Origin: Jimgerdemannia flammicorona
Taxonomy: Eukaryota
Direction of reading: 5' to 3'
Assembly (NCBI GenBank): GCA_003990765.1
Contig: RBNJ01000226.1
Span: 1 to 36,196, forward strand
Length of the DNA stretch: 36,196 bases
Shown here: one piece after another, positions 4,797-35,934 of the stretch
How the letters are laid out: each line of letters begins with the position of its first letter
Numbering within the stretch: position 1 is the stretch's first letter
The notes under the pieces: generated by a model
The model's database searches: none
The model's input: the letters and a program-made list of their open reading frames with translations, nothing else
What the model was told of the DNA's origin: nothing
Position numbers and translations under genes: made by a program

Positions 4797-4828
4797 ATTG
4801 AAAGAATGTTTGCAATTGGGACCCCAGC

Positions 4829-6744: not shown

Positions 6745-6844
6745 GTTGATAGTCATCAGACACCAAAAATGTTGTAAAAGTGTTGTCTGAGTCTTGTGTC
6801 ACCTGAATGTTACTGGTGAAAGATGGATGTATATGCTTATTGTT

Positions 6845-9800: not shown

Positions 9801-9956
9801 CCATTCCAGTCTATTCAAATCATCCTCACACCTGACATCCTGCAAAAGAAAGAGATCAGCCTTCAATCTCTTCAGCCAAGCAAAAATGTTCTATTAATAA
9901 AATGAATCTCATAGCCCATTTACATTTAAAGAGAAAATATTGGTTGTACTATTCAT
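6845..9956 (-). pseudogene. LINE-A ORF2 (endonuclease and RT), continuing at ~942 leftwards
   Basis: Starts MNSTTNIFSLNVNGL at 9956, with ADLFLLQD, GRVILQGDLLS, GAFVDN and EGRLGLVDF. More decayed than LINE-B and interrupted by MITE-1 inside the RT domain. Confidence 0.88.
7754..8134. mobile_element. MITE-1: non-autonomous hAT-type fold-back element (381 bp)
   Basis: 12-bp TIR tagtgctcccaa / ttgggagcacta. Perfect 8-bp TSD ctctgaac (7746-7753, 8135-8142). Subterminal (ga)ttcgaatc repeats and an internal palindrome at ~7886-8052. Confidence 0.95.
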
Positions 9957-9987
9957 AAGAAATAATGTATAATAACAAGCATATCCT

Positions 9988-12009: not shown

Positions 12010-12087
12010 AATACTAGTAGCTTTTCTTCAGAAACTGTGTCAAAGTGTTGTCAAAAGATTGTGTAACCTGAATGTTACTGGAGAAAG

Positions 12088-13447
12088 GTCAGCAGAGGTC
12101 TTGTAATTGACTTCACTTTCTTCTCCAGAGTCTTTTTAAATATTGTTGACCTCAGTTATCTTCAAACCTTGCTCCTGGGTTATCTCTGTAAGTTTATATC
12201 TCATTTGCTGTCTGAATGTAAGTATTTCTACCAGCTGGCCAAAAGTTGTATTGACCTTTTGTTGACTGAGATCCTTGAAGATATCATACTTGAAAGTCTT
12301 GGTTTTGCAAAGCTTCTTCTCTTTTTCTCCTTTGCTGGCTGGAGTAGTTTCTTGAATAATATCTTTAATAGCCTGTTCTAGCTCTATATCTTAATCTATT
12401 TCTTTATCTTGGCTTTCTATAGTAGTTTCTATCTATTTTTCCACAGAGTTCTTCTTGGATCTTTCTGATGATCTCTTGTAGAGTTGCTTGCAGACATTCT
12501 TCTTAACAGTCTCAGCAAGATAAACTTTCTTTCTTCTTCATCTGATTTCCAATCTCCTCAAAGATAATAGTTTTGCTCTATTTCTTATTTCAAGTTGTAT
12601 TGCTTGGCTGGGTCTTATATTTGGTTTTGCTCATATATTTATATGAATAGTAGCCTTCTTCTCTATAGGTGTAGCAGGTACCTCTATTTTTGTCTATAGT
12701 GGTAGTAAACTTCTGAACTAGACAGCAGTCTATTCTTCTAATTTCTTTTACTATATCTCCTAGATGGGCTGTCATTTCAGCAAACTTCTTGATAATTTCC
12801 TCCATTGAGTTGCTGTTTCTTTGCTGCTCAGTAGCTCTTGGCTGAGATATATTTTGATTGATCACTATGGTAGAGATTATGCTAATTGTCTTGGATGCTT
12901 TAATTCTAACTCTAGTAACTCTTTCCATTGTGTAATCTTGTAGATGTCTGGCTATCCAATATCACTGAATATAGGTAACCTTTTGTACTAGATCTAGAAC
13001 TACTAGTGATGAGCAGATGGCTAAAGCTATCTCTAGGTAGACTCCTTTCATAAAGGTTATCTCAGCTACTTGATCTCGAATGGTGGCAGTATAATCTGTA
13101 AGAATTATCTGATATTGGATTCTGGTATAGAATATGTTTAAATCCTTACTCATTTCATGATATATTATATTGAGCTGATCCTTCAGAGCTTGCTTAATCT
13201 CATCTGTATAGTAGGTAATTCAGAGTGAAGCCTTCTATACTGTTAGCACAGCATTATCATCATATCCTATATAGGTTATAGCTATGAATACTGCTCTTGC
13301 TGGTCCTCAGAGACTAAAGGACATAAGGGCTACTTACTGTGTTGTTGTCAGGATCCTAATAACAGCATACTGTTCAAAATCATCAATGAAGATAATGATC
13401 AATTTATCTGAGATATATCTGTGGAATGCTGGTAGTCTCATATTCAT
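12088..13447 (-). pseudogene. gag: Decayed gag of an older Ty3/Gypsy element, cut by LINE-A
   Basis: The N-terminus MNMRLPAF...FIDDFEQYA...L*GPARAVF parallels MATSLPTF...FLDGIEG...LREPARGIF of the gag at 20475. Decayed CCHC knuckle TCYTYREEGYYSYKY at ~12630-12680. Downstream KYDIFKDLSQQKVNTTFGQL at ~12230-12295. Confidence 0.72.
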
Positions 13448-14132
13448 CTTATCTGAATGTTTTGATTCAATTTGTGTAGTTGTTTGGGTTGTAGTGGTTG
13501 TTTATTGTTTTGCTTGAAAGTGAGAGATTTGTTTTAAATTACTAGTCAATAGACACTAAGTTGTAATATAGTAGATATATAACTGTATAAGTACATCAGA
13601 TTTATATATCTTAAAAATTTAATCTTCTTTGACTTTACAGAATTCTTGGAATATAGAGGTGGGTGAGTTTAAAGTATATCTATCTGTAGGCTTATTAGCT
13701 CCTTCACTTTCTCTTTTACTCTGAACTATTTCAATCTGAGGTTTATTCACTCTAGATACTGAGAATATTAATATAAGTTTTCTAGCTATAAGATGGCTAA
13801 GTTATAACTATATTTTCTATAAGTCATTTTCTATAAGTATAGATCCTCTATAGTTGTGAAATCTCTATAATTATGAAGATTCTACATCTGTAGACTTTCT
13901 ATATTTTTAAAGTTTCTATATTTATGAAAATATGACTGCTATTTATATGGCTATACTATATTTGGAAATTGGATTCAGATATTATGATCAAATATCTATT
14001 TCTCTAATTCATATTCCTAATTCAGATTGATTATTATAATATATCATATCTTTAAAGTATAGAAAGTTATAAATAGAAACTAGTTTTAAATCTTTTATTC
14101 AATGTGATAATAATGAGCTTTTAGTAGAGAGA
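13448..14132 (-). other. AT-rich non-coding segment, probably the 5' leader of the older Gypsy, with degenerate short repeats at ~13810-13930
   Basis: Lies between the gag start and the Copia LTR and has a recurring tctata motif. The assignment rests on position only. Confidence 0.35.
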
Positions 14133-14401
14133 TATTGAAAAACTACTGACAGACTGAGAGATTGGATATTAAAGAGATATAGTGAGTAAATTGATAGATA
14201 AATAATATATATTAATAATATATAATTAACTAATCATTATCTTTTATTATTGTAGAATACTTAAAAGAGTGGAGAGAGGAAGGAGGGTGTTGTTTATTAA
14301 TACTAACTTATACATTTTTATACATATTGATGATGTTTATATAATGATATAGTCAGAATATACCACTATATATTGAGTGCTATAACTAAGATATTTCAAT
14401 A
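14133..14401 (-). repeat. 3' LTR of the Copia element (269 bp)
   Basis: Inverted termini tattgaaa...tttcaata, consistent with TGTTGAAA...TTTCAACA after C>T decay. On the minus strand it is preceded by PPT-like ttgaatgagag (14402-14412). The partner LTR is outside the window. Confidence 0.7.
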
Positions 14402-14729
14402 CTCTCATTCAATGAGATATGTTTCAGAATATATAGAAATATGTAAATAATAGACTAACTAAATATAACCAACTAAATGCTATCTAGATAATTAGCAAAG
14501 GTCAAAATTTCTTACTTATAAGTATGAAAATAGATCAAGAATATAGTGAAAGACTGGTAATATAGATCCAGAATGAAATAATATTAAAGAAATATATATA
14601 AAATATATAGGAATATAGAGATATATATGCAAAATATGGTGAAAGACTTTTAGAAGCCTAAAAAGTTTCATAATCTCTATCAAAATACTTAAATGTTAAT
14701 TATTAGTATTTTGATACATAGTTCTCATT

Positions 14730-17700
14730 AGTATAGAGTTGTTTATTATAAGTCTTATTCCATATATATATAAGACAAACTTTGCATTTAAAAGGACTTT
14801 AGTCAATAAATCCACTATTATATATGTATTTTAGATATATAGTTCTATTTTCCACACATTCTTATATAAAATAATACTATATATCAATGTACTTCATTCT
14901 AGTATAATGTATAGAGTTCTTTACTATTGCTATTATAGACTAATTGTCTTGTTGGAGTAGTATAGAGTGCCATTGATCATATATTAACTCCTTTAGTAGT
15001 TTCTAAAGCTATATAGCCTCCTTTATTACTATAGATAATACTTAATACTCTACTTTTATAGATGATATTGCTACTGAAGATTGCTTATATATTTATCATA
15101 AAATGACTTCTTTTTCACTGATTTTAAAGAGGTATCTAATTGTTGAGCACTGATCATTAAGATCTCCAGCTCAGTCTATATTATATATTAGATAACTTTA
15201 AATGTACTTCCACTTAATTTATTATTATTACTTAAATATAGTATATAGTATACTATATCTTTGATATATATAAAGATGTACTTGATTGTCATTCAATGTA
15301 AATTGTCATAGCAGGATGAGTATAGTACCACTTTGTTGACTATATATAATATATCAGATCTCATTCTGAGCTTAAGATATATAAGAGATCTCACAGCTTA
15401 TTAATAGAGGATATTATTATCTTCAGACATAGTATTGAAATTCTTTAGTCTCACAGATATCTTTATAGATGTTTTAACAGATTTATATTCACCTATACTG
15501 AATTATTCAAGTATAGTCTAAATATATATAGCTTATAATAGGTATATAGTATACTTATGTCTATTACATATGATCAATATTTCAATATAATAGGATGTAT
15601 TATCCATATTTGTCATCTTGAACACCTGATATAGTATCACTTTTATATTATTAATCTTACTTATCATTTTAATTAGAATGATATCATTTACCCAAATTTC
15701 TAGGTATACTATTTCTAAGGATACATGTCAGATATATATACATAAATTAGTCTTATAATACTTAAATCTATTACTTATAAGATATTTGTTGATTTTTTGG
15801 TTCTACAGTCTTATCACTTATTTGATATTATAAAGACCTTTATGTAATTTATATATGAGCTCCTTTTGCTCATTATATATAATTTGTATCCTTATAGTTG
15901 AGAGATATATAGCTCTATATCTATATTACCATTTAAGAAGACTATCTTAATATCTATTTGGTGGATTTTATAGTTATATTTAGCTCTGATCTCAAGAAGT
16001 ATTCTAAGTAAAGTAAGCTTGAATACAAGGAAAAAGAGAAAAGGTCTCATCATAGTCTATGCCATATCCTTATAAATACCACTTTACTACAAATTGGACC
16101 TTATACTGCTCTATATTACTGTTACTATTATGCTTAATTTTATATATCTATTGGGATCTTACTACTTGTTAATTTACTGGAAGATAGACTAGATCATAGA
16201 TATCATTCTCAATAAGTGAATTGTATTTCTCATCTATAGTCTTTTTTTATTCTTTCTTATTAACTAAATATATAGCTTCATTATAGTTTACTAGTTCATC
16301 AGTTATTATAATATTAGTATACTTGTAAGCATAGTTTATATAATGTTTATTGTTACATATAATAGAATTTCTTAAACTGATCCCAATAATCTCCTAAATC
16401 TACTTCTACTTCATTATATAATCTAGATTTGTATTTTTTCTTACCTTTCAGAGAGATATCCTCATTATCATTATCATTCTCCTCTATAATTTCTATAATT
16501 CTTGGCTTCAATGACCTTATTGATATGGATATGAATTGTTCTTCTGCTAGCATAGATATCATTCCACTCACCTTTAAAGTTAGCATAGTTATTACTGACT
16601 GTACTGTTATATTAGTCTAGATAGCAATTTCCATATGAATTTTCTGCTTAGTTTCCTTGAATTGAATATTATATAAGTTGATAATATAATATTTCTATAG
16701 ACTCTATAATCTATATACTATTCTATTATATCCATAAAATATATACTTATTGTCTTAAACTCAAATTTGTCTCTATTGTTACCCTTATTCAAGATAAGTC
16801 TTACTTCTGAATATCTGTAAATATGAAATATCTGGCTTAGATCTACTTTATAATTCTTCAGATATAAGATCATTATCATTTCTGAATTGTTAATTATTAT
16901 TAGATCTGCCAGATTTACTGAAGTCTTTATTTAGAGCTTGATAAATATAATTATTTTGGATATATACTACTATATTTACTACTTTGGCCCAGAAGGAGTA
17001 TAGTAAGCCAGCTGTATTTATCATTATTTGAGCCATTTCTACTATCATTTAATTTAAGTACTCTGCTATACTATTCTGCTTAGGTATATAGAGAGCTATC
17101 ATAGAGTATTGGATGCTATACTTCTTCAAGAAGTATCTGAAGGCTTTGTTGATATATTTCTTACCATTATCTAAGTATAGAGTCCATATCTTATATCTTG
17201 TTTTGTTCTCTATAGTTATCTTGAATTCTTGGAATTTTTCAAATACCTCATTCTTTGCTATAAGGAAGTATATATAGGCTTTACAAGTATAATTATCAAT
17301 GAAAGTAATAAAATACTTCTTCTCAGAGTATATTATCATTTGTATAGAGCTACAGATATCTATATATATTATATCAAAAATACTAGCTACTCACTTCATC
17401 TGTTTCTGAAAAGATCACTAGAAAGTCTTATTTATCATATATCTATTACAAAAGCTGAAGTCTGGTGATATATATTTTGGTAATTTATATATAGATTTAC
17501 TCCTTATCATTTATTCCAAGCTCATCTTACTGATATGTCCTAAGTATTTATGTATAATATATATACTAGAGATTATCTTCAGTTATAGTAGAATATATAG
17601 ATGATATACTACTTGACATACATACTATCAATTACATATAAGTTTCTCTTTTTTGATATATGTATATATTAACTCCTTATTGTTCTTTAGATTAATTACT

Positions 17701-18528
17701 ATTATATCATTTAGTTATATATTTACTCCTTTATCTCCTCAAGCTATCATTTGGCCTATTGAGAAGAGGTTCTTATTAATATCTGGAGTATATAGTATAT
17801 CTATAAAGATGCCTGAGAGTTCATTAACTTTTCTATATAGATATATAATAATATTTCTCTTATCTTGAGTATAAATGATATTATTGTTACTTAGTTTAAT
17901 AGATATAGGATACTTGAACTTCTCATATATAGAGAACTACTTATGGTGAGCTATTATATACTACATTGTACTGGAATTCATGAGCCAGACTTCTTTGCTA
18001 TATATATAAGTGCTCAGCATATAGCTTATATTCACACTGATATCTATATTAATATTTTTCATTCTTATTACTCCTTCTGTATATAGATAGATTGCTGCTT
18101 CTACAAAAAACAACCCTCTATTACTTCTGCTACTTTTATTGTTGTTATTGGTATCTATAATATTTACCTATTATTACTCATATTACTTGCCTTGATCACT
18201 TTTTTTTTTTTTTCTTATAGTTGTAGTTTTGCTCCCAATATCTACACTTATTACAATAGAAGTATTTACTCAAATTTCTCATATTGCTGACCTTAACCTC
18301 ATCCTTTGCTTGCCTTATCTTTGCCTTATCTACATACTCTATAGAAGGCTTTTTTATTGCCATTATTGTTATCATTGTCATCTGGTCTTGATCCTCATTT
18401 AAAAGACTTATAATAATATACTTGTAGTTCAATAGTTTGCATAGTAGTAATAACTTATTGAATGTCTCAAGAAGGCCACATGTAAGAGCCAGAACCTTAT
18501 CTTTATTCTTGATGAGATCTATAGATAT
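14730..18528 (-). pseudogene. pol: Copia gag-pol remnant
   Basis: Knuckle YFYCNKCRYWEQNY (~18230-18270). Protease WLMNSS (~17970-17990). Integrase YFITFIDNYT...LDNGKKY...KQNSIAE (17049-17339). RT WVND (15683-15694) and LHKGLYNIK. RNase H D*AGDLND and RMKYIDI*YYFI...DLLTK (~14790-15180). Confidence 0.88.
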
Positions 18529-19917
18529 TGTGACAAACCAAAGACATACTACCCAAATTATACCTTAATCAGATAATGTGAACAATTAGCCAAGATGACA
18601 TAAACATACAGTATAGTAACCAGCAACCATTGCTGTGGAACCTGTATAAATAGCCAGACATACCAGATAGGGTCTGTTTATCTGTACAGACTCTGTACAC
18701 TGTACAGGTCCTGTATACCATACAGACTCTATATATCTGTCATAAGTAGTAGATCTATAGTTAGCCATATAGCAACCAGATAGCAACCAACTTATATAAA
18801 TTACCCCAGAGATAAGAGTGAATAAACCTCAGTCCAAAAGTTGAATACAAACTAAAGCAAAAGTCAATTGTCTGGTACACTTAGGAGAAATGTCTACCAA
18901 AAGTCACTTGATCCAGGAAGGATTGCAACACTTAGGAGATATGCCTGCTAATGAGCCACTGCCAAGAAGTTGTGAGCTTGGTTCTCTTCTCTTCCACTCC
19001 AGTCTACTTTCTGATATAAAGAACAAGTCTGTTTTTGGTTTGCTTGCCAGATAAGCCTGAAGATTTGCCACCTAAGTTTAAGGAAGAACTTTGCCACTGT
19101 TTCCCAGTTGAAGCCACTGATTTAGAAGAATCCATACCATTCGAGTTATTTCCCAGAAGCCCACTGATTCAGGAGAATCTGTATCATCTACCACTTTCAA
19201 GTTATTTATATTCCCAGAATCTGCATCATGATATTCCCAGAAGAGCCCGATTTGGAAGAACTCATGCCATCCGAGTAGTATTCCCAGTTGAAGTTGCCAA
19301 TTCAGAAGAATCTGTGCCATCTGAGTTATTTCCCAGAGAGCTACTGATTTAGGAAGAGACCACAATATTTGAGTTGTTCATTGTTTCCAGTGAGTCTGAG
19401 TTATTGAGTTATCTGCTGCCAGTATTATTCTCAGTAAGGAGAAACCATGCCATATATTCTCAGTGAGCCAAATTGAGTTATCTGCCAGAAATTGTATACT
19501 TTTAGAGATTGTTGTGCTACACAGAGATCATCACACTACACATGAAATTCCACCAACTCCCAGTTGACCCAAGAAGGAAACTGCTAAATTGCCAGATCAT
19601 CATATATAAGAAACTCACATATAAGAGATTGTCACACCAGAAATCACATACTTTTAGAGATTGCCTTACTACACAAAATTGTGGCATTCTCAGTTGACCC
19701 AAGAAGGAAGGACACAAATTGCTGCTATACTTAGAGAACTGTCCCAATAAGGAAACTGCTTACAGATATCTAGCTTGACTATTATACCACTAAACACCAA
19801 GGACCTCAGGAATTTTAGAATATTTTGTTACTTTTTGACAAAGTAACTGGGAGCTCAAGCCAAACTACATTAACCTCCAACCTTGTAATTTGCCTCTATT
19901 GAGCCAGGCACATTACA
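18529..19917 (+). repeat. 5' LTR (1389 bp)
   Basis: Runs tgtgacaaacc...ccaggcacattaca and is a direct repeat of 34574-35934. Confidence 0.95.
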
Positions 19918-19937: not shown

Positions 19938-20225
19938 GATTTTAAAATTGATATGACTTTTTAGCTCACAAGAACCCACAGTCAAACTGGATACATTTGA
20001 TACAACACCAACTTCTGCCACTATAGAAGAATCAGTTATCACTAGCATCTGGACAGGAAGAGAAGTAATCACATCAAGACTTGCCAACTACCCAGCATCA
20101 GAAGGATCCCAACCAGAACTAGAAGGCAGTACAACTTGAAATTTCCAATCAGATCAACCAGATAATATAGGCAGCCCTACTAGAGATTTCGAAGAACTTG
20201 CACAAGAACTAGAAGATCTTATCAC

Positions 20226-22560
20226 ATGAACCCAAGACTTTACAGCCAGATGCCCCATATCAGTCTCACCAATCTCACCAATAGAACCTTTTCACAACTC
20301 CTTGCAGAATTGGAAGTAGCTCCTACAAGAATACCTAGGCTTATTTCACTTCATCTAAGGTCCAGAACACTATCCTCAAGATACCCAAGCACCCCCACCT
20401 CCAGTAACAGTTCAGAAAGTGTATCAGAATCAGAATCCCAACTTGAACCAGAATCAGAAGAAAGTGATAAAAAAATGGCCACCTCATTGCCAACCTTTGC
20501 AGAATACCCAGAGGAAGACCCCAGAGAATTCCTTGATGGAATTGAAGGAATCACAGCCTTGAGGAATCTCTCAGATGAAAGAAAAATTGCCATCTACAAA
20601 GCTCAGCTCAGAGAACCAGCCAGAGGAATTTTCCATCAAACAGCAAACAACCCAGATTCAGAACTAGCAAGACAGATGCAAGCAGTAATATCTTATAAGC
20701 TAGAATATGAGGTCATGGTCCACTGGCTCATTGGAAAGTATGCAGGAAATGAAACCTGCCACAAGGCTCAAGAATCCATCATGGGGATGAAGATGAATCT
20801 TAGAGAATCAACCAGAGCCTTCTTTATAAGAATCCAGAAAAGAATGCATACTGCTGGATTCAATGTCACCAACCAGAACATCATAGGTCCAATGATCTTT
20901 ATGAATGGAATTCCCCCAAACATTGTCCAGCATGTCTACACCCTAGATATCAGGAGGTCCAAAGAGTAAGTAGATGTAGTCCAAGGATTCTTTAATGTCA
21001 GACAAGAAACTACTTGGAGTGATCATGACAAGAAAGAAGAGAAAGAAGACATCCTGGTCAAAGCCCTACAAGGACTCCTTCAAGGACAAGAAAGATCCAA
21101 GGAAAGAAGGCCAGCCAAAGAAGGAAAGAAGGATAGAAGCAAAATCCAGGACCTCAGCTCCAAGTTGGACTGGCTAGTTGGACAGATAGAAAAACTCACC
21201 ACATGCAAAAATCGGAACTACCAGGACAATAGAGAATACCCCCCACAAAGGAGCCAAGGTTATCCACCCAGAGATAGTGCTCCGAACGAGTCAATCCGGA
21301 TGGGATTCGGATGGATTCGAATCAACCATTGTTTTGATTTCCAAATTAGACAATTAAATGTTTACATCAATAACTTGATGAATAATAATCCAAATTTGAT
21401 TATCTTGGTGTCATTTGAAAGCCCTTAATAAGGCCTTTCTAATAATACCAAGAATATTAAAATCGGATTACATGTTGCCGAGATATTAAGGAAAACGTTC
21501 CATTTGACGAAGTTTCCAAAATCGGCAAATCAAAGAATTTCCAAAATCGGCGATTCAGACGGTTTCCTTCATAACTCGGCAACGCATGATCCGATTTCAA
21601 TGTTCTTGGTATCATTAGATAGGCCTTATTAAGGGCTTTCAAATGACACCAAGACCATCAAATTTGGATGATTATTCATCAAGTTATTGATGTAAACATT
21701 TAATTGTCTAATTTGGAAATCAAAACAATGGTTGATTCGAATCCGATTCGAATCCGATTCGAATCCGATTCGAATCCATCCGGATGGGATTCGAATCCCA
21801 TCCGAGTTGATCTGGATGAGATTCAATCTGAATCAATCCGAATCCAATCCGGATTAAATTGACTCATTAGGAGCACTACCCAGAGATAACAGAAATTACC
21901 AATAAGAAGAAAGAAGATATTGTATCTAAGATAGAGCCCAAGTACAACTTCCACTGTGGACAATTTGGACACTATGCTACCAAATATAATAACAAAAAAA
22001 GTAACCAAAGGGACTCAGAATCATCAAACCAAAGGAATGACACCCAGTACAAAAAAACTGAAGCTCGTTCTGTTGAAGATTTTGAGGAGGCCAGCAACAG
22101 TGAAGACTACAGTGACCTGGACTTGTATCCTACCAAGGTTACCACTTGGAAAACAGTCTACCCAGCAGAGAAGAGGAAGAGACCTATAGGAAGACCATCC
22201 AGGAACATCAGTAGAAGAATTATCCAAGAGGAGGATGAAGAACATGAAGAGGAGCAGGTAGAAACACCTCCCCAAACTCCCTCACCTTTCATCTCCAAGA
22301 TAAATGAGTTGCCACCAGAAGATGAAGAAATAGAACAAGAAGAATGGGAACCTGTTACTCCAAAGCCCAAGAAGAAGTACACCCCAAAGACCATGCCTAG
22401 AGACATTTACAATGAAGGCTGGCAGAAGATTCAAGAGGCCAAGATGGAAGTCCCTCTTCTGCAGTTTCTGTAACTGACACCAGCTGGAGTCTGAACCAAA
22501 TTACTGAGAACCACCAGATCTAGTACTGGCTGAGTCCCAATCCTACAGCAAGAATCAGTT
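20226..22560 (+). pseudogene. gag: Gypsy gag, interrupted by MITE-2; the start may be 20475 or further upstream
   Basis: Capsid-like LPTFAEYPEEDPREFL...MKMNLRESTRAF...FMNGIPP. Decayed knuckle FHCGQFGHYATKY at ~21949-21987. Acidic and Pro-rich region 22123-22473. Confidence 0.85.
21275..21878. mobile_element. MITE-2: non-autonomous hAT-type fold-back element (604 bp)
   Basis: TIR tagtgctcc / ggagcacta. Perfect 8-bp TSD cccagaga (21267-21274, 21879-21886). Inverted arms of ~185 bp (21313-21498, 21559-21744) and gattcgaatcc repeats. Confidence 0.95.
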
Positions 22561-22589
22561 CCCATCTCTGTCCAGGCAGCTGAAAGACA

Positions 22590-22965
22590 TGTCAGCACCT
22601 ATCTACATAGAGATATTGGAGGACAAAAGGTGAAGATCCTCATAGATACTGGAGCAGCTATCTGTGTCATTGCCAAATGGTTCCTGGACACCCTCCAATA
22701 GCCCATTGATGGACCATCCAACCTCAGTATCATAGTAGCAGATGGTGCCTGAACTCAACCCCTCGGAGAAGTATGAAATATCATCATCTCCCTCGGACAC
22801 ATTTAGTTCTCCATCCCCAAAGCTATTGTCACTGAAGCTGTCACCTATGATATGATTCTTGGCACCAACTGGATGAAGGAAATGAATGCAGTTGTTAATA
22901 TTGGCCAATAAGTACTCAAGTTTGATTACAGAGGCAAGAAGTATAGAGTTAAGGTGACTAGCTAG
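22590..22965 (+). pseudogene. Retropepsin aspartic protease domain
   Basis: KILIDTGAAICVI (Asp codon at 22645), IIVADG and YDMILGTNWM; in frame with the gag C-terminal ORF. Confidence 0.92.
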
Positions 22966-23479
22966 AGCAATTGAAGAAGAAGAAGAAGGTTACTATTCAG
23001 GAAGAATCTGCCAGTAGTGAAGAGTCTACTACAGAAGAAGAAGAAGAATCCAAAGATAGAAATGATCTCAGACTCAACCCCCAAATTAACCTGGTGGATG
23101 ACAGACCAGAAGATAATGTGTAGGCTAAGAATACTATCCCTATTACCATTGGAGCTATTGTGGGAGAAACCAAAGGATGCCCTATTTGTCTCAAGAGACA
23201 CAAGTGTCCTAAGCATTCCTCCAAGATCATGGGAACAAGAAAATTGCCTGGCACAGCCTGCCCAGAGTGCAGAAGAAAGAAGAAGAAATACAGACATATT
23301 CCAGAAACACCTGCAACCAAAGCTGCAGAAGTGCAAGCAATTTGGAGACAAGAATTATCTGAGGAAGAAGAAACTTCTGACCAAGAAGTTTCTGAACAAG
23401 AAGCACCTGAAGAAGAAGAGGTCCCTGAACTCATTCTCTGGGATTAGTGCATCACAATCCAAGTTGACCTGTGTACATA

Positions 23480-23790
23480 TTTAACCTGACCTGGAATTAT
23501 ATGTCACCCATCTTTAACCCGACCCAGAATTATATATCACCCATCTTTAACCTGACCTGGAATAATACATCATCCATCTTTAATCTGACCCAGAATAATA
23601 TATCACCTGTCTTTAACCTGACCCAGAATTATACGTCACTCATCTTTAACCTGACCTGGAAATGTATGTCACCCATCTTTAATCCAACCTGGAATTATAC
23701 ATAACCTGTCTTTAACCCAACCTGAGAAATATACGTGACCCAACCCAAGAAATATATGTGACCCAACCCTGACCCATATTTAACCTGATA
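23480..23790 (+). repeat. Left subterminal array of the hAT, about 7 copies of a 33-bp unit plus partial copies
   Basis: Unit approximates tttaacc(c/t)gacc(t/c)(g/a)gaattata(c/t)gtcacccatc; inverted copies lie at the right end. Confidence 0.92.
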
Positions 23791-23970
23791 CAGACTCATC
23801 TTTAATCCGCCTTTAAGCTATAAGGTACCAAAAAAAATATATTGCACATCTAAGATATATATTTAGAATAAACAAACAGAAACATAATTAGGAATCAGAA
23901 ATCAAAATGAAATCGGAAATAAATAGGAAGTAAATCAGAAAAATAAAGAACTTACTGGTATGAATAGATC

Positions 23971-25273
23971 TTACTTTTCATTGCTATAAACCAAATGATC
24001 CTCCTCTTCATCGCTATAAACCAACTGATCCTCCTCCTTCTCATATTCCGAACCATCTTCCTCCATATATTCTGAACCACTTTCCTCTATATCCTTCTCC
24101 TCTATATCCTCCTCTGAGCTGACCTCCTCTGTGCCAACCTCCATTTCGTCCTCCATGCCAACCTCCCCATATTCCTCTATACTGACCTCCCCATGTTCCT
24201 CTGCGCCAACCTCCCTGTGTTCCTCCACACCAACCTCCCTGTGTTCCTCCATACTGACCTCCCCCATGCCAACCTCCCCATGTTCCTCCACACCGACCTC
24301 CCCTGCGCTGACCTCCCCCGCGCCAACCACTCCCATGCTGACCTCTCCACCGACCTCTCCACTGGCGCCGACTCCTTCACTGGCACCAACCTCTCCCACC
24401 TCTCCATCTCCTCCACCACCACCCCCCTCAACAAAATGCACAAGCCTGCCATCCATCAGTCGCATATAAAGCATTTTGTCATTCTTCACTGGTACTCGTT
24501 CAAATATAGCCAGCAGTTTTTCATGTTCATCCATGATGACAATTCCATCTGGACAATCTCGCTTGTTCCATGCTTTGGTATTCACCTTGAAGCCGGTGTG
24601 GTATGACAAACATTCCATGATTTTCACATGGTTTTCTATTGCTCTTATGACTTCTTGCCTCAGTTGGTCATCATGTACTTTCTTAATGCATTTGTTGGCC
24701 GCAGCAAAAGCATGCCTAATGTCCAATTTGTAAGACCTTTTCTCTGTAAGGTTTGGGGCATCTGGGAAATTGATTTGGCAATGCTTCCAGGTGGTGTTTG
24801 GGCAAACTTGATGGCAAAAATGGCAATTGTAGCAAGATTTGTGCTCCAGCCCAGGCTTAGAAGCTGGAGGATATGTATATTTCAAATGTTATTAGGAAAA
24901 AAATTCGGACATTGATTTAAAAAGAAAAAAAAAAAAAAAACTAACTTTTTCGAGCTGCATTATTGGGATCTGGTTAGGGACCTTGTGCTTGCGGACCGGC
25001 AGCGAGCTGGCAGTCAAGCTGGAGATCGAGGAGCTGAGGGTCAGCGAGCTGGGAGTTGGCGAGCTCAGCAACCTGGGTGTCGGCAAGCTCAGCAGGCTGG
25101 GTGTCGGCAAGCTCGGCAGACTGGGTGTCGGCAAGCTTGGCAGGCTGGGTGTTGGCAAGCTGGGCATCTTTAGGGTGCTGAGCTTTGGGATGGCATACTG
25201 AAGTACATCGAGCTTGGGGGGGGCCAAGTAAATACTTATTGGCTGGGTGGTCATATTTACGTTTTCTCAACAT
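23971..25273 (-). pseudogene. hAT accessory gene of unknown function, two exons (25273-24946, 24863-23971), about 406 codons with one internal TAA
   Basis: An 82-nt GTTAG...CTAAT...CCAG intron of phase 1 joins MLRKRKY...NNAARK in frame to the 304-aa ORF. The protein has a basic N-terminus, AELADTQ repeats, SCYNCHFCHQVC and an acidic tail. The 3' end could splice further (gtaaga overlaps the stop). Confidence 0.75.
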
Positions 25274-25288
25274 AGCGGTGAATTAAGT

Positions 25289-25433
25289 GAGGCAAAGCGA
25301 AGGATGAGGTGAAGCGAAGGACAAGGTGAAGCAAATGATGAGGCGAAGCGAAGGATGAGGCGAAGCAAAGGACAAGGCGAAGCAAAGGATGAGGCAAAGT
25401 GAAGGACAAGGTGAAGCGAAGGATAAGGCAAAA
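25289..25433 (+). repeat. 17-bp tandem repeat, about 8.5 units, just upstream of the accessory gene
   Basis: Consensus (g/a)aggcgaagcgaagga(t/c). Confidence 0.9.
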
Positions 25434-25489
25434 AGAATGAGAGGCGAAAGTAAGCTTTCGATATCTTAAATGTTCAAAAGCTATAACAT

Positions 25490-25592
25490 TTTTCAGAAGC
25501 TCTTTCGGAATCTCTCCGAAATCTCTTTCAGAAGCTCTTTCTGAATCTCTTCAAAATCTCTTTCGGAATCTCTTTGAAATCTCTTTCAAAAC
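25490..25592 (+). repeat. 11-12-bp tandem repeat
   Basis: Iterations of tttcagaagctc, tttcggaatctc and tttgaaatctc. Confidence 0.85.
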
Positions 25593-25696
25593 TCATTTCT
25601 AAATTGCATGTTATTTGCAATCTGAGGAATGAGAGAAAGAGAGGTGAAGGAATACGTGAGGGTTGTGCAAGAAGAGTGGAATGCAAGAGAAGTGGA

Positions 25697-25948
25697 ACAC
25701 AAGAGGAGTGGAATGCAGTGAGGAAAGCTCTGGATTGCAAGCGTAAGCATAAGCATAAGCACAAGCGCAAGCTTTGCTCTGCTCAGCTGATAGCTGATAT
25801 CACGTGATATCAACTTATTATCAGCTTGTCAGACTGAGCGGAGCAAAGCTTATGCTTATGCTTATGCTTATGCTTACACTTACACTTATACTTATGCTTA
25901 TGCTTGCAATCTGGAGCTTTCCTCACTGCATTCCACTCCTCTCTGTGT
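25697..25948. repeat. Long inverted repeat 1, centred on TGATATCACGTGATATCA (25795-25812)
   Basis: gaggagtggaatgcagtgaggaaagctc...(taagca)n pairs with (tgctta)n...gagctttcctcactgcattccactcctc. Confidence 0.9.
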
Positions 25949-26337
25949 GATTCAGCAGGTTCTGTATAAGCCCTTATTGAGCAAGGTTTGCAATGACATT
26001 TGAGTGAGGTTTGTGGTGTGTTTGAGTGAGATTTGCAGTGAGGTTCAAGTGAGATTTGCAAGCCTTGCACTTGCAAGCTCAGCCGATAGCTGATATCATG
26101 TGATATCAGCTTATATATATGTCATATTAGCTTGTGACTGAGCTTGTCCAGGTTTGCAAGTGCAAGGCTTGCAAAGCCTGGCTTATGCAAATCTCACTTT
26201 AATCTTACATGCAAATCTCACTTGCAAATCTCACTTGCAAATCTTGCTCGAATCTCGCTGCAAATCTCACTCAAACGTACTACAAACCTTGCTCAAATGT
26301 CATTGCAAACCTTGCTCAATACAGAACATGCTGAATC
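25949..26337. repeat. Long inverted repeat 2, centred on AGCTGATATCATGTGATATCAGCT (26088-26111)
   Basis: gattcagcaggttctgtat...attgagcaaggtttgcaatgacatttgag pairs with ctcaaatgtcattgcaaaccttgctcaatacagaacatgctgaatc. Confidence 0.9.
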
Positions 26338-26660
26338 TCCAAAGTATGTTTACTGTTTGCTGTTTGCAGTTGTGTGATGGGTACCAGTTCACCACCCGTG
26401 CATATTTATTCATCCATCCTCTGTCCACAATCGATCATTGGCTATTGCATGCCACCTTGCTGCTCTCCCTCTTGCTGCCCCCCACAGTTCTTGGCTTTTC
26501 CCGCCACTCGCCGCCTCCCCACAACTCCCTGCCCCCTAGTTTACTGCCCCCCCAGCTCGTTTCCCAGTTCGCCACTCCCTAGCTTGCCACTTCCTAGCCA
26601 CTTTCCAGCTCTTGGCCTCCCACTCAAGCTCCCAGTCCCTGCCATCATCAAATATTCGAA

Positions 26661-28983
26661 ATGTCTAAAGATCAAGAAGTACATTTAGGAGAAATCTCAG
26701 AACCATCAGATGATATATTGGAGGATATATCAGAGGATATATCAGATATCTTCACCAGTTCATTATCACCAACAAGCATGAGAATAAAAATAAAAACAAA
26801 ACCTGGTGATAGCTGGGTGTGGAATCATGCCACAAAGGTAGTTTTATACATTATGCTAATGGTTGAATTCATAGGGGTGATTGGTCTCAGTCATAAGGGT
26901 GGGTGGTTGGTTGTAAGCGGTTGAGGTTCTAATATAGTCTCATATCTCTCTATTCAAATAGAATTTACAAAGTAAGCTCATCAGTTGCAACCATTGCATG
27001 ACTTGGAGCTATATATCGAAGGATGGCAATATCAACAATCTTAAACAATATCTCTGGAAGCATCACAATACCATGCTCTTACCTCTCCAGCATGCTGAGA
27101 ATCCTCACTGGTCTAAGAAAGATGATATTGTGAGTATAGATAGAATGGAATTCGGGAAGTACTTAGGAGGTTATTAGAAAAATAATTGATCAAATTTTAT
27201 TATTACAAATAGGAACACACTAGCAAAACTTTAAGTGATGAAAATTTCCATCGATTAATTGCCAACTTCATTGTCACTGGATATCAGCCATTCTCTACTA
27301 TTGAAAATACTGGCTTCAAGTATCTCCTTTACATATTACACCCTGATCTGGCCCTTCCATCAGCTGATATGATTTCATGAGTTATTCGAAAGGAATTCGA
27401 ACTATTGTGAACTCAAGTGAAAGCAAGGCTAGCAGGGCTCAAGTCAAAGGTGTCACTTACACTTGATTGTTGGACATTGGACATTAACATCAAGGCTTTT
27501 CTTGGAATAACAGCCCATTGGATTGACAGTGATTGGAAGATGCATGACATTATCTTAGACTTTGTGAATATCAGCGAAATAACACACATGGGTGCCAATC
27601 TTGCAAAAAGTCTGGAGCTGGTAATAGATGATTTATTGCCTAGTGACAATCAAATCATTGCTGTTGTGTGTGATAATGCCAGTAACAATGATACTCTGTT
27701 TGAGAATCTCCATCATCTGCTCACTCATATATACTGTTTCGGGCATGTGTTGAATCTCGTCATTCATGATACTCTTGGTTCTCTTAGCGAGCCCATTGGA
27801 AAGCTATGGGAGTTGATAAAGAAGATCAAAAATTCAGCACAATGACAAGCACAACTGGCAAAGGTCTGTGAATCCTCCAGAATTCCCATTTTGAAGCCTC
27901 TCTTAGATATTATGATAATATGGAGTTCTACATATGAAATGTTAGCACGTGCTCTGGAGATTCATAAGGTAAGATTTTGAATCTATTTGTATAGATTTTG
28001 GAATATAATTCGGAAGTATTTTGGTACTAAATAAATTGATATTACATCCAAATAGGGCTTGGATATATTGTGTGCTATGGAGAAGCAAATGAGCGATATA
28101 TCTGAAGATGCATGGCAACAATTTGAATTGATTTGCTGATTTCTCGAGCCTTTTGCCAAAGTGACAATTGTGATGTCAGCTTCGAAGTATTCTACAATAG
28201 TGGCTGTTATCCCACTATTTAATTGGCTATGTGATCACCTCAAAGATGTCATTGATACATATCAAACTGGTGAACATTTTAATCAGGTATATATATGATT
28301 TTGAAAGTAATTTTATTTGTGAATTTAGGAACTAATTTAGTAAGTAATTGGGAAGTAATATGTGTATATTTTTATTTTTTATAGATAATGCTTACCGCTG
28401 CTGAGAATGCACATATGAAACTTCTAAAGTATTACTGCAAGATGACACCATTATACAGCATAGCTTCAGCCTTAGATCTACATATCAATATGTGTTATTT
28501 CTGTCGTGAGCAATGGAAAAAATCCTTAATTGATGAATGGAAGAATCAGATGGAACGTATCTGGGAAAAGGAGTATAAGCCTATTAATGCTATCATTATA
28601 CCCTCAATATCTCATGATGCCGATGATTTTATCAACTCAATATATGAGAAGAAACAGCGCATCAATGTGGATGATGAGCTTGAATGGTGGGTGTTGTTTT
28701 TATGTTTTTTGATTGGCTTGGTTAATTTTCACTCATATTTCTCTGTTTTAGTTATTTGTCAGAGAATCCAGCTGATCCTCATATAGATATACTGGATTGG
28801 TGGCAGCAAAATCAGTTGGTATATCCTAATCTTTCACGAATGGCTTGCGATTATCTTGCTATTTCAGCGACATCTGTTTTATCTGAATATATTTTTTCTA
28901 TTACTGGTGAGCTAGTGACTGAATGTCGAAACAGCTTATGTATAAATACAATTCATACATGCATGTGTTTGGATTCTTGGTAG
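26661..28983 (+). pseudogene. hAT transposase (BED finger, catalytic core, hATC dimerisation domain); introns 26838-26961, 27130-27212, 27969-28055, 28287-28384, 28687-28751
   Basis: BED finger SWVWNH/ISCNHC...NLKQYLWKHH. Core motifs SLTLDCWT, FLGITAHWID, CDNASNN, CFGHVLNL, WSSTYEML. hATC region DILDWWQ...YPNLSRMACDYLAISATSVLSE. GT-AG introns keep the frame; several in-frame TGA codons are probably from CGA. Confidence 0.95.
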
Positions 28984-29063
28984 TCTTCAGATATTTTTCA
29001 CTTTCAATTACTCTGAATATTATCCAAATATTTTCCAAATCATTTTTTCAGAGCAGAGTTCAG

Positions 29064-29212
29064 AGGGTCGGGTTCAGGGTCGGGTTCAGGGGTCAGGTTC
29101 AGGGTCAGGTTCAGGGGTCGGGTTCAGGGTTGGGTTCAGGGGTCGGGTTCAGGGTCAGGTTCAGGGGTCGGGTTCAGGGTCAGGTTCAGGGGTCAGGTTC
29201 AGGTTTGGGTTA
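29064..29212 (+). repeat. 12-13-bp tandem array gggtc(g/a)ggttca(g) in the right subterminal region
   Basis: About 11-12 iterations, with a core related to the 33-bp unit (aacccgaccc on the opposite strand). Confidence 0.9.
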
Positions 29213-29224
29213 AGGGTAAATAAC

Positions 29225-29418
29225 AGGTCAGGTGACATACATTTCCAGATTGGGTTAAAGATGGGTAATGTATCTTTCCAGGTCGGGTTAAAGACAGGTG
29301 ATGTACAATTCTGGGTCAGGTTAAAGACGGGTGATGTATAATTCTAGGTCGGGTTAAAGATGGGTGACGTATAATTCCAGGTTGGGTTAAAGACAGGTGA
29401 CATCTAATTTCAGGTTGG
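29225..29418 (-). repeat. Right subterminal array, about 6 inverted copies of the 33-bp unit
   Basis: Units such as gggttaaagatgggtgacgtataattccaggtt are the reverse complement of the left array. Confidence 0.92.
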
Positions 29419-30289
29419 CTGTTTTATGGGTCGGGTTTTGGGTTAATCAGGTCAGGTTTGCAGAGCACTACCTGGGATAACCCTCACTGGATACCACCTG
29501 AAGACAATGATCCTTGGAATACAGAAGAAGGACCCAGTACAAATTACCATTATCTCTAATAAAGAAACTCACTAAGAAAAAGCTTTTCAGCTAGAAAGAT
29601 GTCCACACCAATTGGTCTTCCACTCTCTCTGAGACTACTGCTATCAGTATCATTTACTAGACCAATAGAAGAGACAGAGACCCCAGAGACCAGAACCCCT
29701 AAACATACTTGCACAGTCAACTATCTTTCATGAAGTCACCACCAAATTGCAAAGCCAATTCAGGGGGCAAGGCTTCTTCATCTGGATAGAAATATATCCC
29801 TTGTCTACTCTTCCACTCACTTATGACCAAGATGGATATCAATTCTCAAGGCAATAAGAGATCAACAGCTGGGAATACCATTTCCAAGCAATGGGATATT
29901 ACAACCATGAGAGACATCTAGATTGCCAAGATTGTAGACATCAGAAGATCCATCTCAGCCATGATGTTATAGTCCATACCTTGAAGAGAGGAGATAACCA
30001 AAGCCAGATCCGAAAAAGCCAGACCAAGAAGCCAGGAAGAAGAATCCTCAAGATCTACAATTTGGAAGAAGACATCCTAGCACTCATCAGATATGCAACC
30101 CACCAAGAATGGGCAGAAGATGCCACCAACTTCATGGAAACCCTAGACCCTATAAGAAGAAGGGGAATTAACTACCTCCAAGACCCTTCCACTGGAGCCA
30201 GATGGCCACACCTTAACCTCAGAGCTTGGAGGCTCTCTGCTAGTAGAGCTTCAGCCTTAGGAAAGTCTGAACTCAGTAAGGATATCGCT

Positions 30290-30693: not shown

Positions 30694-31100
30694 AGGTAGG
30701 AAGTATATCTCCTTTAAGTCAACCACCTCAGGAGGAATATTCCCCAGCAAGTATACTGGCAACCAGTCAGACTGCACAAGAATCTTATCCTGAAGCCTGG
30801 AGAACAAACTACCTTCGAAATCTTTGCACCACCCAACCCCAGGAACCTTTTCTTTGAACCCAAGGAAGATATCCCATACCTGGACATAGAGGGACACACA
30901 TTCTCTGACAAGATGAATCCTGTACACTTCCAAGCAATCAACCAAAGTTGAGAGACCATCATCCTGCCAAAAGGAACCATCATAGGGCATCGGGTACCTT
31001 TTCTCAATCAAACTTATAGAGAAGTTTATGAACTAAACCTATCAGGAAATGGCAAAAGGTCTCTGAAGAAAGGAAAGGCCCCTCTGCGACCCAGGAGACA

Positions 31101-32514
31101 GTGAAGCCTTCTGCCAACATTGGAGAAGAATTGATACCTCAACAACAGCAACAACTAGTAGAACTTCTCAACAAATATCAAGATATCTTCACCACTGATT
31201 ATGGCAACCTGCCATACAATCCATCATATCACCACAGTATAAATACAGGAAATGCAACACCCATATGGCAGAAACCCTATAGAATACCCCATCACTTGAA
31301 AACATTCGAAAAGGAGCACATTCAAGAACTCTTAGACAATGGGGTCATCCGACCCTCTACTAGCCCCTGGGCCAGCCCTATACTTATTGTACCTAAGAAA
31401 GGAGGATGGAGACTCTGCATGGATTATAGGAAACTCAATTCAGTCACCAAAAAGGATGTCTATCCTCTGCTCAGAATTGATGACCTCTTGGATCAGTTAC
31501 AAGATACCAGATACTTCAGCAGTATGGACCTCTTCACAGGATTCCATAAGATCCCCATAGACCCAAGAATATTCAAAAGACAGCCTTTCTTGCTCTAGAA
31601 AAACTGTTTGAGTATCTCTGAATGCCCTTTGGACTTGAAATGCACTCTCCACCTTCCAGAGGATGATGAATTCAGTCTATACCCCCTTGATCCACCACTG
31701 CCTGATTGTATATATGGATGATTCCAACATTTATTCAGCAAATTTTGAAGAACACCTGTACTACCTAGAGGAATTCTTCAAACTCATCCGCAAGAACCAC
31801 TTGAGACTGAATGCAAAGAAATACTACTTTGGGAAACAGAAACTTGAATTCCTTGGATTCATAGTTTCAAAAGAAGGAACCCATGCAGACCTAAAGAAAA
31901 CCAAGAAGATCAACAATTGGCCAGTACCCAAAACCTCAAAGGAAATACTATCATTCCTGATGCTAGTATCCTACTACAGAAGGTTTATTAAAGACTTCGC
32001 CCAAATTGCTGCCCTAATCTAAATCCTTCTCAAGAAAGAAGTACCATTCAAATGGAGAGAAATATAAGAAAACACCTTCAGAGAACTTAAGAACTGCATG
32101 ACTACAGCACCAATCCTTGTACACCCCAATCTATAGAAGCCATTCATCCTGTATACAGATGCTTCTAAAGATGGCCTCAGAGCAGTTCTAGTCCAAGAAG
32201 GACCTGATCAACAATACTATATGATAGCTTATACAAGCAGAGCTACCAATCAGCAGCAGATGAACTATGGTAGCACCAAACTGGAATGCCTTGTAGTCAT
32301 ATGGGTGGTCACCCTGTTTAAATATTACCTTATTGGAAAAAAATTCACTCTGATCACAGACTATGTAGTCCTCAAATAGCTATTCAACTATAAGGAACCC
32401 ATTGGAATCCTAGCCTGCTGGATCCTTATCCTTCAGGATTACAAAATCACCATCATTTACAAAGCAGAGAAAGCCCACAACAATGTTAATGTACTTTCCT
32501 ACTAGTCTCAATGA
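31101..32514 (+). pseudogene. pol: Gypsy reverse transcriptase and RNase H
   Basis: RT motifs IRPSTSPWASPILIVPKKGGWRLCMDYRKLN, MPFGL, YMDD (31711-31722), FLGFIV, YYRRFIKDFAQIA. RNase H motifs FILYTDASKDG, KLECL, LITDY, KAHNNVNVLS. Confidence 0.95.
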
Positions 32515-33578
32515 ACCAGAAGAAGGGTGTCCCAAGGAACTATACCCTAAAGGAAGCTCCTCAGACCATCAAGGCACAAGAAGATCTCATCTGAAAAGAA
32601 CATCAGAAAGCCCACCAAGGACAAGCAAACATAGAAGAGAAGCTGCGAACAATACAACAACATTGGCCCAACCTCAGAACACAAGTCTGAGACATACTCA
32701 AGAAATGTGATACCTGCCAGAAGTACCAAGAAAAGAAGAACTATCAAGCACCATTGCAACCAATCGTACCACCAGATAACATCTTTCAGAGATGGGGAGT
32801 AGATATAATTGGACCTCTACCAGTTATACCAAGAAGAATCAAATATATCTGTATATTTGTAGAACATCTGACCAAGTGGCCCGAGGCTTTCCCAATGGAA
32901 ATCGCAGATGCCTTAACCATTGTAGGCCTCCTCCATAGACTCACACTCAGATACAGATTACCAGAAGAACTTATCTCTGACCGAGGCATAGAATTCATCA
33001 ACTATATAATCACAAGTTATGCTTGAATTCACAAGATCTGCCTCAAAAGGACAACATCATACCACCCTCAGACCAATGGCATGACAGAGAGAATGAACCA
33101 GACCATCAAGAAAGGACTTGCCAAAGTCAATCCTACCAATTGGGACCTCTGCTTACCTGAGATCCTATGGGAAATTCGGAACACCCCTGCTGTCTCCACC
33201 AAACAGAAGCCATTTGAAATGATATTTGCCAAGAAAACCAGAACTACTGACCATGAGAATCTTGGAGACCTCCTCAAGAAGGCAGGACAGTTATGTAATC
33301 AAGCCTGAGGTCAGATTATCAAAGCTCAAGAAAGACAAAAGAAGTACTATAACCAAAAACAGAAGGATCAGAAAATCAAGATTAGAGATCAAGTATTAGT
33401 TTAGAGAAGCATGATTGAAACGAATTTTGCCACTAAACTGGAACCCAAATGGGAAGGACCTTATCTTATATACAATATCAGAGGAACTAATATCTATTTA
33501 AGAAGCATGGATGGATGAACCCTGAGAACACTAGTATACATCAATTGTATCAAACTATATCTTCCCTCCACACCATGA
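32511..33578 (+). pseudogene. Gypsy integrase in its own reading frame (355 codons, no frameshift, a few point stops)
   Basis: HHCC finger (EHQKAH...CDTCQK), WGVDIIGP, ISDRG, YHPQTNGMTERMN, and GPY module KLEPKWEGPY. Confidence 0.92.
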
Positions 33579-34561: not shown

Positions 34562-34573
34562 AGTGGGGGCTAA
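34562..34573 (+). promoter_or_regulatory. Polypurine-tract region before the 3' LTR
   Basis: agtgggggctaa lies immediately before tgtgac. Confidence 0.6.
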
Positions 34574-35934
34574 TGTGACAAACCAAAGATGTACTATCTG
34601 AATTATATCTTAATCAGATAATGTGAACAATTAGCCAAGATGATGTAAATATATAGCATAGTAACCAGCAACCATTACTATGGAATCTGTATAAATAGCC
34701 AGACATACCAGATAGGGTCTGTTTACCTATACAGACTCTATATACCATACAGACTCTATATACTGTACAGGTCCTGTATACTATACAGACTCTGTATATC
34801 TGCCATAAGTAGCAGATCTATAGTTAGTCACATAGCAACCAGATAGCAACCAACTTGTATAAATTACTCCAGAGACAAGAGTGAATAAACCTCAGTCCAA
34901 AAGTTGAATACAAACTAAAGCAAAAGTCAATTGTCTGGTACACTTAGGAGAAATGCCTGCCAAAAGCCACTTGATCTAGAAAGGATTGCAACACTTAGAA
35001 GATATACTTGCCAATGAGCCACTGCCAAGAAGTTGTAAGCTTGGTTCTCTTCTCTTTCACTCTAGTCCACTTTCTGATACAAAGAACAAGTCTATTTTTG
35101 ATTTGCTTGCCAGATAAGCCTGAAGATTTGCTGCCTAAGTTCAAGGAAGAACTTCACCACCATTTCCCAGTTGAAGCTGCCAATTCAGAAGAATCTGCAT
35201 CATCTACCACTTTTGAGTTATCTGTATTCCCAGAATCTGCACCATCATATCCCAGAAGAGCCCAATTCAGAAGAACTCACACCATCTGAGTAGTATTCTC
35301 AGTTGAAGTTGCCAATTCAGAAGAATCTGCACTATCTGAGTTATTTTCCAGAGAGTTGCTGATTTAGGAAGAGACCATGACATCCAAGTTGTTTATTGTT
35401 TCCAGTGAGCCTGAGTTATTGAGTTATCTGTCACCAGTATTATTCCCAGTAAGGAGAAACCATATCATACATTCCTAATGAGCCAAATCGAGTTATCTAC
35501 CAGAAATTGCATACTTTTGGAGATTGTTATCTATACAGAGATTGTTGTGCTATATACGAAATTCCACCAATTCCCAGTTAACCCAAGAAGGAAACTGATA
35601 AATTGCCAGATCATCATACATAAGAAACTCATGCTACACAAGAGATCATTATGCCAGAAATGGCATACTTTTGGAGATTGCCTCACTATACAAAATTGTG
35701 GCATTCCCAGTTGACTCAAGAAGGAAGAATACAAATTACTACTATATCTAGAGAACTATCCCAATAAGGAAACTGCTTGCAGATATCTAGCTTGATTATT
35801 ATACCACTAAATACCAAGGACCTCAGAAATCTTAGAACATTTTATTGCTTTTTGACAAAGTAACTGAGGGCTCAAGCCAAACTACATCAACCCTCAACCT
35901 TGTAATTTGTCTCTATTGAGCCAGGTATGTTATA
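34574..35934 (+). repeat. 3' LTR (1361 bp)
   Basis: Runs tgtgacaaacc...ccaggtatgttata (terminal CA decayed to TA) and is a direct repeat of 18529-19917. Confidence 0.95.

Follow-up and report, generated by a model that had tools for sequence, protein, structure and literature searches.

The window, i.e. the whole stretch of 36,196 nucleotides analysed here, is eukaryotic, consists almost wholly of transposable elements and has an overall CpG o/e of 0.13. Two direct repeats at 18526-19915 and 34571-35932, which are 85-93% identical, represent LTRs, and since a reverse transcriptase (31032-32022, plus strand, RVT_1) followed downstream by an integrase (32691-33026, rve) lies between them, they belong to a Ty3/gypsy-type LTR element. 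A hAT element of 6,026 bp (23445-29470) is nested in this retroelement and splits its gag-like ORFs (20184-23447) from pol. As the CpG o/e of the hAT element is 0.39 and thus above the 0.08-0.19 of the host gypsy element, the hAT element is the younger of the two. It harbors a transposase pseudogene on the plus strand and, on the minus strand, a second, putatively spliced gene. The short AT-rich introns, the nesting of transposable elements and the CpG decay would, at a guess, fit a large fungal genome.

That the second ORF is carried within a genuine hAT element, as claimed in an earlier note on this DNA, is borne out by terminal inverted repeats (TIRs), a target-site duplication (TSD), inverted 33-nt subterminal repeats and a Dimer_Tnp_hAT domain (E = 1e-19). 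The 8-bp TSD, TCTGGGAT at 23437-23444 on the left and CCTGGGAT at 29471-29478 on the right, agrees in seven of eight positions. The short TIRs, TAGTGC... at 23445-23460 (plus strand) and ...GCACTA at 29455-29470 (minus strand), are exact inverted copies of each other in their outermost 6 nt and match at 11 of 16 positions as counted by eye. A start of the YARNG type is a signature of hAT ends, and both ends are of this type here. According to TRF, a left subterminal array of a 33-nt unit in ~8 copies (23476-23742) has its inverted counterpart in a right subterminal array of ~5 copies (29243-29415), and the left array is 78-84% complementary, in inverted orientation, to 29229-29431. Together with the hAT dimerisation domain at the C-terminus of the transposase, these are the features by which the element is assigned to the hAT superfamily. 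A further tandem array with a 25-nt (12/13-nt) period and the unit GGGTCRGGTTCAG was found by repeat search and TRF at 29058-29216; it adjoins the right subterminal repeats on their inner side, and as the left end has no such array, the two ends of the element are asymmetric.

The transposase pseudogene (26661-28986, plus strand) is described by a six-exon model (26661-26837, 26962-27129, 27213-27968, 28056-28286, 28385-28686, and 28752-28986), which was read by hand from the sequence and then checked by a script. The model has 622 codons plus a terminal stop and no frameshift. Its five introns are 65-124 nt long with 18-38% GC, their donors read GTAGTT, GTGAGT, GTAAGA, GTATAT, and GTGGGT, and all five acceptors are TAG. 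The last exon matches PF05699 (Dimer_Tnp_hAT) with E = 9.7e-20 and 70.6 bits (cut-off 21.4), while zf-BED with E = 0.011 and 16.2 bits stays under its cut-off of 20.6 and a weak DUF659 match is likewise under the cut-off. The 144-aa ORF of the transposase core matches three hAT-type proteins, the best of which is P0003 with 53% identity; P0005 (712 aa) is full length with 31% identity. The reading frame is interrupted by four in-frame stops with codon starts at ~27381, 27408, 27846, and 28137, and hence this copy is dead and not an intact autonomous element. TGA is the only kind of stop among the four, TAA and TAG being absent, which fits CpG deamination (CGA to TGA) nearly throughout.

The second ORF is located on the minus strand head-to-head with the transposase, the two start codons being 1.39 kb apart, and therefore points away from it exactly as the earlier note had stated. 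The divergent intergenic region (25274-26660) contains arrays with 17-, 23-, 16-, and 6-nt units as well as two large palindromes at ~25702-25942 and ~25975-26321, the arms of which are 71 and 88 nt long and 87-89% complementary. Each palindrome has a GATATCA[CT]GTGATATC core. Furthermore, a ~38-nt unit occurs once in each of them (25781-25818 and 26077-26114) and holds a perfect palindrome with a CACGTG core, which reads GATATCACGTGATATC in the first and GATATCATGTGATATC in the second copy. These palindromes might serve as a bidirectional promoter or as a binding module, or else represent a nested foldback insertion.

All features that had been listed for the second gene are present in the sequence, namely the ATG of MLRKRK, the AELADTQ repeats, SCYNCHFCHQVC-x7-C, the block and the Gly/Glu tail. 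Exon 2 (23971-24863, minus strand, stop codon included) is delimited on the basis of ORF statistics, homology to the protein P0002 and the array periods, and encodes, in this order, SCYNCHFCHQVC-x7-C, a repeat-free block of ~90-120 aa, Gly/Glu/Val repeats and an acidic tail up to the stop at 23971. The final 150 residues of the product contain 53 Asp/Glu and 5 Lys/Arg. The stop-to-stop frame of exon 2 comprises 305 codons and is the longest in the hAT element. Of 500 Markov-1 simulations with the composition of the element, none contained a frame of this length, and of 2000 with the local composition 0.1% did. The non-repeat block of 146 codons was stop-free in 0.035% of 20000 simulations (P = 0.00035), and four of the other five frames over this block have 4-11 stops, while the antisense frame +0 has one. 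TRF identified seven tandem arrays in the candidate ORF, with periods of 30, 24, 15, 24, 39, and 15 in exon 2 and 24 in exon 1; all seven periods are divisible by three and the arrays are without indels, whereas this holds for the periods of only 4 of the 11 arrays in the non-coding parts of the element (33, 6, 21, and 33; the rest being 23, 17, 23, 16, 11, 13, and 25). This difference corresponds to a one-sided Fisher P of 0.010, to be read with the arrays not being fully independent. The open frame of exon 2 is therefore more than chance, and it behaves like coding sequence. With a CpG o/e of 0.40 vs. 0.39 for the whole element, the region of the second gene equals the hAT element and exceeds the host gypsy, which indicates that the gene is as old as the element. 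A second copy of the gene was not found within the window.

The upstream part of the gene is less certain. A putative intron (24864-24945, minus strand, GTTAGT...CAG) of 82 nt is T-rich with 22% GC, and its length is in the range of the transposase introns (65-124 nt), but its donor carries T at +3 vs. a purine in all five of these. The putative exon 1 (24946-25273, minus strand) would start with the ATG at 25273 and contains a 24-nt repeat in five copies at 25048-25166 (TRF), which reads AELADTQx in a frame that is itself ambiguous. The earlier note had concluded from the intron phase that there is one protein of 406 codons. Such a reading does exist, as splicing in phase 1 from the start at 25273 yields 406 codons, interrupted once by an in-frame TAA at 24976-24974; however, it is only one of many, since 31 combinations of ATG, GT and AG leave the frame open through the Cys motif. 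By its splice signals, the combination proposed originally pairs the best donor with the first AG. Three start models may serve as examples: the ATG at 25273 with a weak GTCCCT donor at 24981 gives a stop-free product of 394 aa, and with an alternative AAG acceptor, which ends at 24857, the GTTAGT donor gives 397 aa from the ATG at 25254, with the repeat then reading PSLPSLPT, or 299 aa from the ATG at 24960. The N-terminus of the latter model, MQLEKPGLEHKSC, parallels MNPKPGPEAKSC of P0002. In the span of exon 1, three of the six frames have one stop each, and an open frame is thus not more than chance here. Moreover, similarity to P0002 sets in precisely at the boundary of exon 2, and none was found in exon 1.

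It is correct that the second gene has fewer stops than the transposase, i.e. one in 406 vs. four in 622 codons, but this difference is not significant (conditional P = 0.35), and even a stop-free model compared with the preservation of the transposase yields a conditional P of 0.14. Counting CGA and TGA codons, five CGA and no TGA in the candidate gene stand against four of each in the transposase (one-sided P ~0.10, calculated by hand). The only internal stop of the 406-codon model is a TAA, unlike the TGAs of the transposase, and a single stop is unremarkable given four in the transposase. In the present copy both genes have become pseudogenes, or almost so, and nothing in it is active.

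An exhaustive search of 1.84 billion protein representatives returned two matches, P0001 and P0002. P0001 is a bacterial repeat protein of 2825 aa that matches only a 30-residue "DCPDGIV.MD" stretch, and was rejected as spurious. P0002, a protein of 103 aa, matches with E = 2e-5 and 25 identities in 54 residues (46%) over the Cys motif, and by tblastn this match falls at 24858-24691, in the reading frame of the ORF. Common to both proteins are KPG, KSC-x-NC, F-x-H, CP, CQ, PNL, and R-x-Y, which make up a conserved stretch of ~55 residues at the start of exon 2, KPG-x-E-x-KSC-x-NC-x-F-x-H-x2-CP-x6/7-CQ...PNL. Past the motif, a basic helix follows in P0002 and then an acidic tail of Val/Ile and Asp/Glu, so that its parts have the same order as those of the window protein, minus the ~90-aa block. 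P0002, which is a true relative, is a singleton and stems from one contig of 1078 nt. Further relatives were not recovered: a word-indexed protein search with residues 1-146 of exon 2 gave 67 candidates, none of them significant, a profile built from the window protein and P0002 found only P0002 among 140 candidates, and scans of bacterial and archaeal contigs with the Cys-motif protein and the transposase gave no match. Since even the nearest transposase in the databases is 53% identical, the transposable element proteins of the source genome are evidently absent from them, and the lack of further homologs is therefore little informative.

The conserved cysteines follow the pattern C-x2-C-x3-H-x2-C-x6/7-C and lie in a basic stretch, residues 1-60 having a pI of 9.0. 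The earlier note had compared them to the first half of a Zn2Cys6 cluster, the six cysteines of which are arranged as C-x2-C-x6-C-x5-12-C-x2-C-x6-8-C. The first three conserved cysteines indeed read C-x2-C-x6-C, the context is basic and a fourth one follows 6-7 residues on. However, only these four cysteines are shared by the window protein and P0002, the fifth and sixth are missing in both, and PF00172 gave no hit at E up to 10, which speaks against the Zn2Cys6 reading. The accompanying proposal to reverse CpG decay in the motif held in part: the third cysteine of the window protein is an Arg in P0002, as expected for CGC to TGC, but the other two positions are occupied by Thr and Ser there. 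Two further candidate motifs were rejected. The window protein contains CxxCxxCxxxCP as in 4Fe-4S ferredoxins, but Fer4 profiles score 8-17 bits, under their cut-offs of 21-35, and because the third cysteine is Arg in P0002 and its TGC is one CpG transition away from CGC, the ferredoxin-like motif is probably an artefact of decay. A CCHC zinc knuckle has the pattern C-x2-C-x4-H-x4-C, whereas the spacing here is C-x2-C-x3-H-x2-C, and no zf-CCHC hit was obtained. Apart from Fer4 below threshold, neither exon matches any Pfam family.

A structure search, which had been proposed as a check, did not provide a credible relative of the second-gene product in either the PDB or the ESM Atlas. In the PDB the best match of a profile search had E = 0.17, none being credible, and the ESM Atlas returned no usable match for the block of the window protein, nor did a feature search with P0002. 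The structural neighbors of P0002 in the Atlas are weak (TM at most 0.51) and heterogeneous. A single-sequence AlphaFold2 model is mostly helical and unreliable (pLDDT 47.3). Three hydrophobic quartets flanked by acidic residues are found at the C-terminus of P0002 and one in the window protein (GIVIMDEHE), which we take to resemble SUMO-interaction motifs.

What these data suggest to us, with a confidence that comes close to an even chance without quite reaching it, is a genuine second protein-coding gene, now decaying, within a dead hAT element of the autonomous type, whose product was most likely an accessory or regulatory factor. The gene would be arranged head-to-head with the transposase across a spacer of 1.4 kb rich in repeats and palindromes, and would encode a protein of ~300-400 aa composed of a basic module with four Cys (plus His), a helical block of ~90 aa and an acidic tail of ~150 aa rich in Gly, Glu and Val. 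The Cys module would probably bind a single zinc ion, and the architecture suits a nuclear protein that would contact nucleic acid or chromatin via this module and recruit partners by its acidic tail. Most likely it would have been an accessory or regulatory factor for the hAT element, expressed from a shared divergent promoter. It speaks against this explanation that it is based on one hAT copy, that the sole homolog P0002 covers 54 residues and is without the helical block, and that Pfam, the PDB and the Atlas yielded no relative.

A different origin of the same protein is conceivable, namely that a one-off or lineage-limited transduplication took place, by which all or part of a host gene for a small Cys-motif/acidic protein with no role in transposition came into the hAT element. 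There is precedent in fungal hAT elements that carry a captured and amplified histone H3, known from Pseudocercospora fijiensis and from Pyrenophora tritici-repentis and relatives (PMC6710886). A foreign, captured origin would agree with the 49% GC in the region of the second gene vs. 36% in the transposase region. Furthermore, P0002 is short (103 aa) and stands alone as an ORF, with a Met of its own just ahead of the conserved KPG, and exon 2 offers no ATG in frame until residue 82, as though its original start codon had been lost. Yet no parental host gene or family appeared among the 1.84 billion representatives or in Pfam, the ORF is complete to its stop codon, the intron-like spacer is apparently intact and the head-to-head arrangement is orderly. 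All in all we regard a capture of this kind as rather unlikely, but as an explanation to be reckoned with. More skeptically, there might be no gene at all and the open frame would be a by-product of stop-poor tandem repeats in a transposon. Exon 1 consists mostly of tandem repeats and exon 2 to about one half, the frames of exon 1 fail to separate coding from non-coding sequence, and other long open frames overlap the same region (24029-24469, plus strand, 146 aa; 24118-24606, plus strand, 162 aa; 24041-24376, minus strand, 111 aa). It is the stop-free non-repeat block, the significant protein-level similarity to P0002 in the frame of the ORF and the divisibility by three of all its repeat periods that make this explanation improbable.

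The earlier note had gone further in proposing an anti-silencing or chromatin factor that acts on the repeats of the element itself, comparable to VANC. Short tandem arrays and palindromes are indeed dense around the second gene, and the heavy CpG decay in this genome puts methylation-based silencing in play. VANC of the VANDAL elements is reported to bind their own non-coding regions (PMC5735166, PMC10398659). However, the second-gene product resembles no known family, nor VANC as far as this is covered by Pfam, and the present copy is itself CpG-depleted (o/e 0.39) and dead. An anti-silencing role is speculation, by analogy from repeat abundance and the methylation signature only, and a sequence-specific factor of the VANC type appears highly improbable to us. 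Another idea is that a lineage of hAT elements regularly encodes a second protein of an undescribed family, in which a basic Cys4/His zinc module of ~55 aa would be combined with an acidic tail that may bind SUMO or histones, and which might recognise the element's own tandem repeats or the CACGTG palindromes and regulate transposition or counter methylation-based silencing. We give this idea little credence; if it were true, the family would be the hAT counterpart of VANC or TnpA.

To our knowledge, hAT elements are regarded as single-gene transposons. DNA transposons with two genes are known from other superfamilies, e.g. VANDAL/MuDR with VANC and mudrB, En/Spm with TnpA and PIF/Harbinger with the Myb-like ORF1. 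Like these, the element described here combines a transposase with a lineage-specific, fast-evolving, non-catalytic protein and has repeat-rich non-coding parts, but they belong to superfamilies other than hAT and share no sequence similarity with the present gene. TnpA and VANB/VANC appear in PMC13547354. Among fungal hAT elements, captured copies of histone H3 are the best-documented second genes. For hAT elements, the capture of H3 was the only case of a second encoded protein that we found in the literature searched, i.e. that outside of subscription journals and Repbase reports. The fungal H3-carrying elements (PMC6710886) resemble ours in being of the autonomous type with short TIRs, an 8-bp TSD, a DUF659-type transposase and a second coding sequence between the TIRs. 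They differ in that their passenger H3 is a recognisable housekeeping gene, whereas the passenger here falls into no known family, and in their decay, which is by RIP there and of the CpG type here (o/e 0.39, four of four stops TGA). A conserved element-specific second protein, if true, would extend the theme of accessory factors from Mutator/VANDAL, CACTA, and Harbinger to hAT, and would help to understand how DNA transposons deal with cytosine methylation where a genome is heavily CpG-depleted and dense in transposable elements. At present, one dead copy and one distant homolog amount to a lead and not to a demonstrated system.

The remainder of the window contains further retroelements. Two related LINE-like copies lie on the minus strand at 2154-7063 and 8026-12027, with an Exo_endo_phos domain at 3976-4635 and an RVT_1 domain at 2435-2896; pieces of their ORFs are visibly alike, e.g. 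3041-3484 and 8026-8457, and their coding strand is extremely G-rich (GC skew of ~ -0.5 on the plus strand) with a CpG o/e of 0.06. Between these copies and the gypsy element, the region 13000-18500 is very AT-rich (23-30% GC) with a CpG o/e of 0.01, and holds an integrase-core ORF on the minus strand at 17049-17390 (rve, E = 4.6e-8). This region is an older and more decayed retroelement with a different composition.
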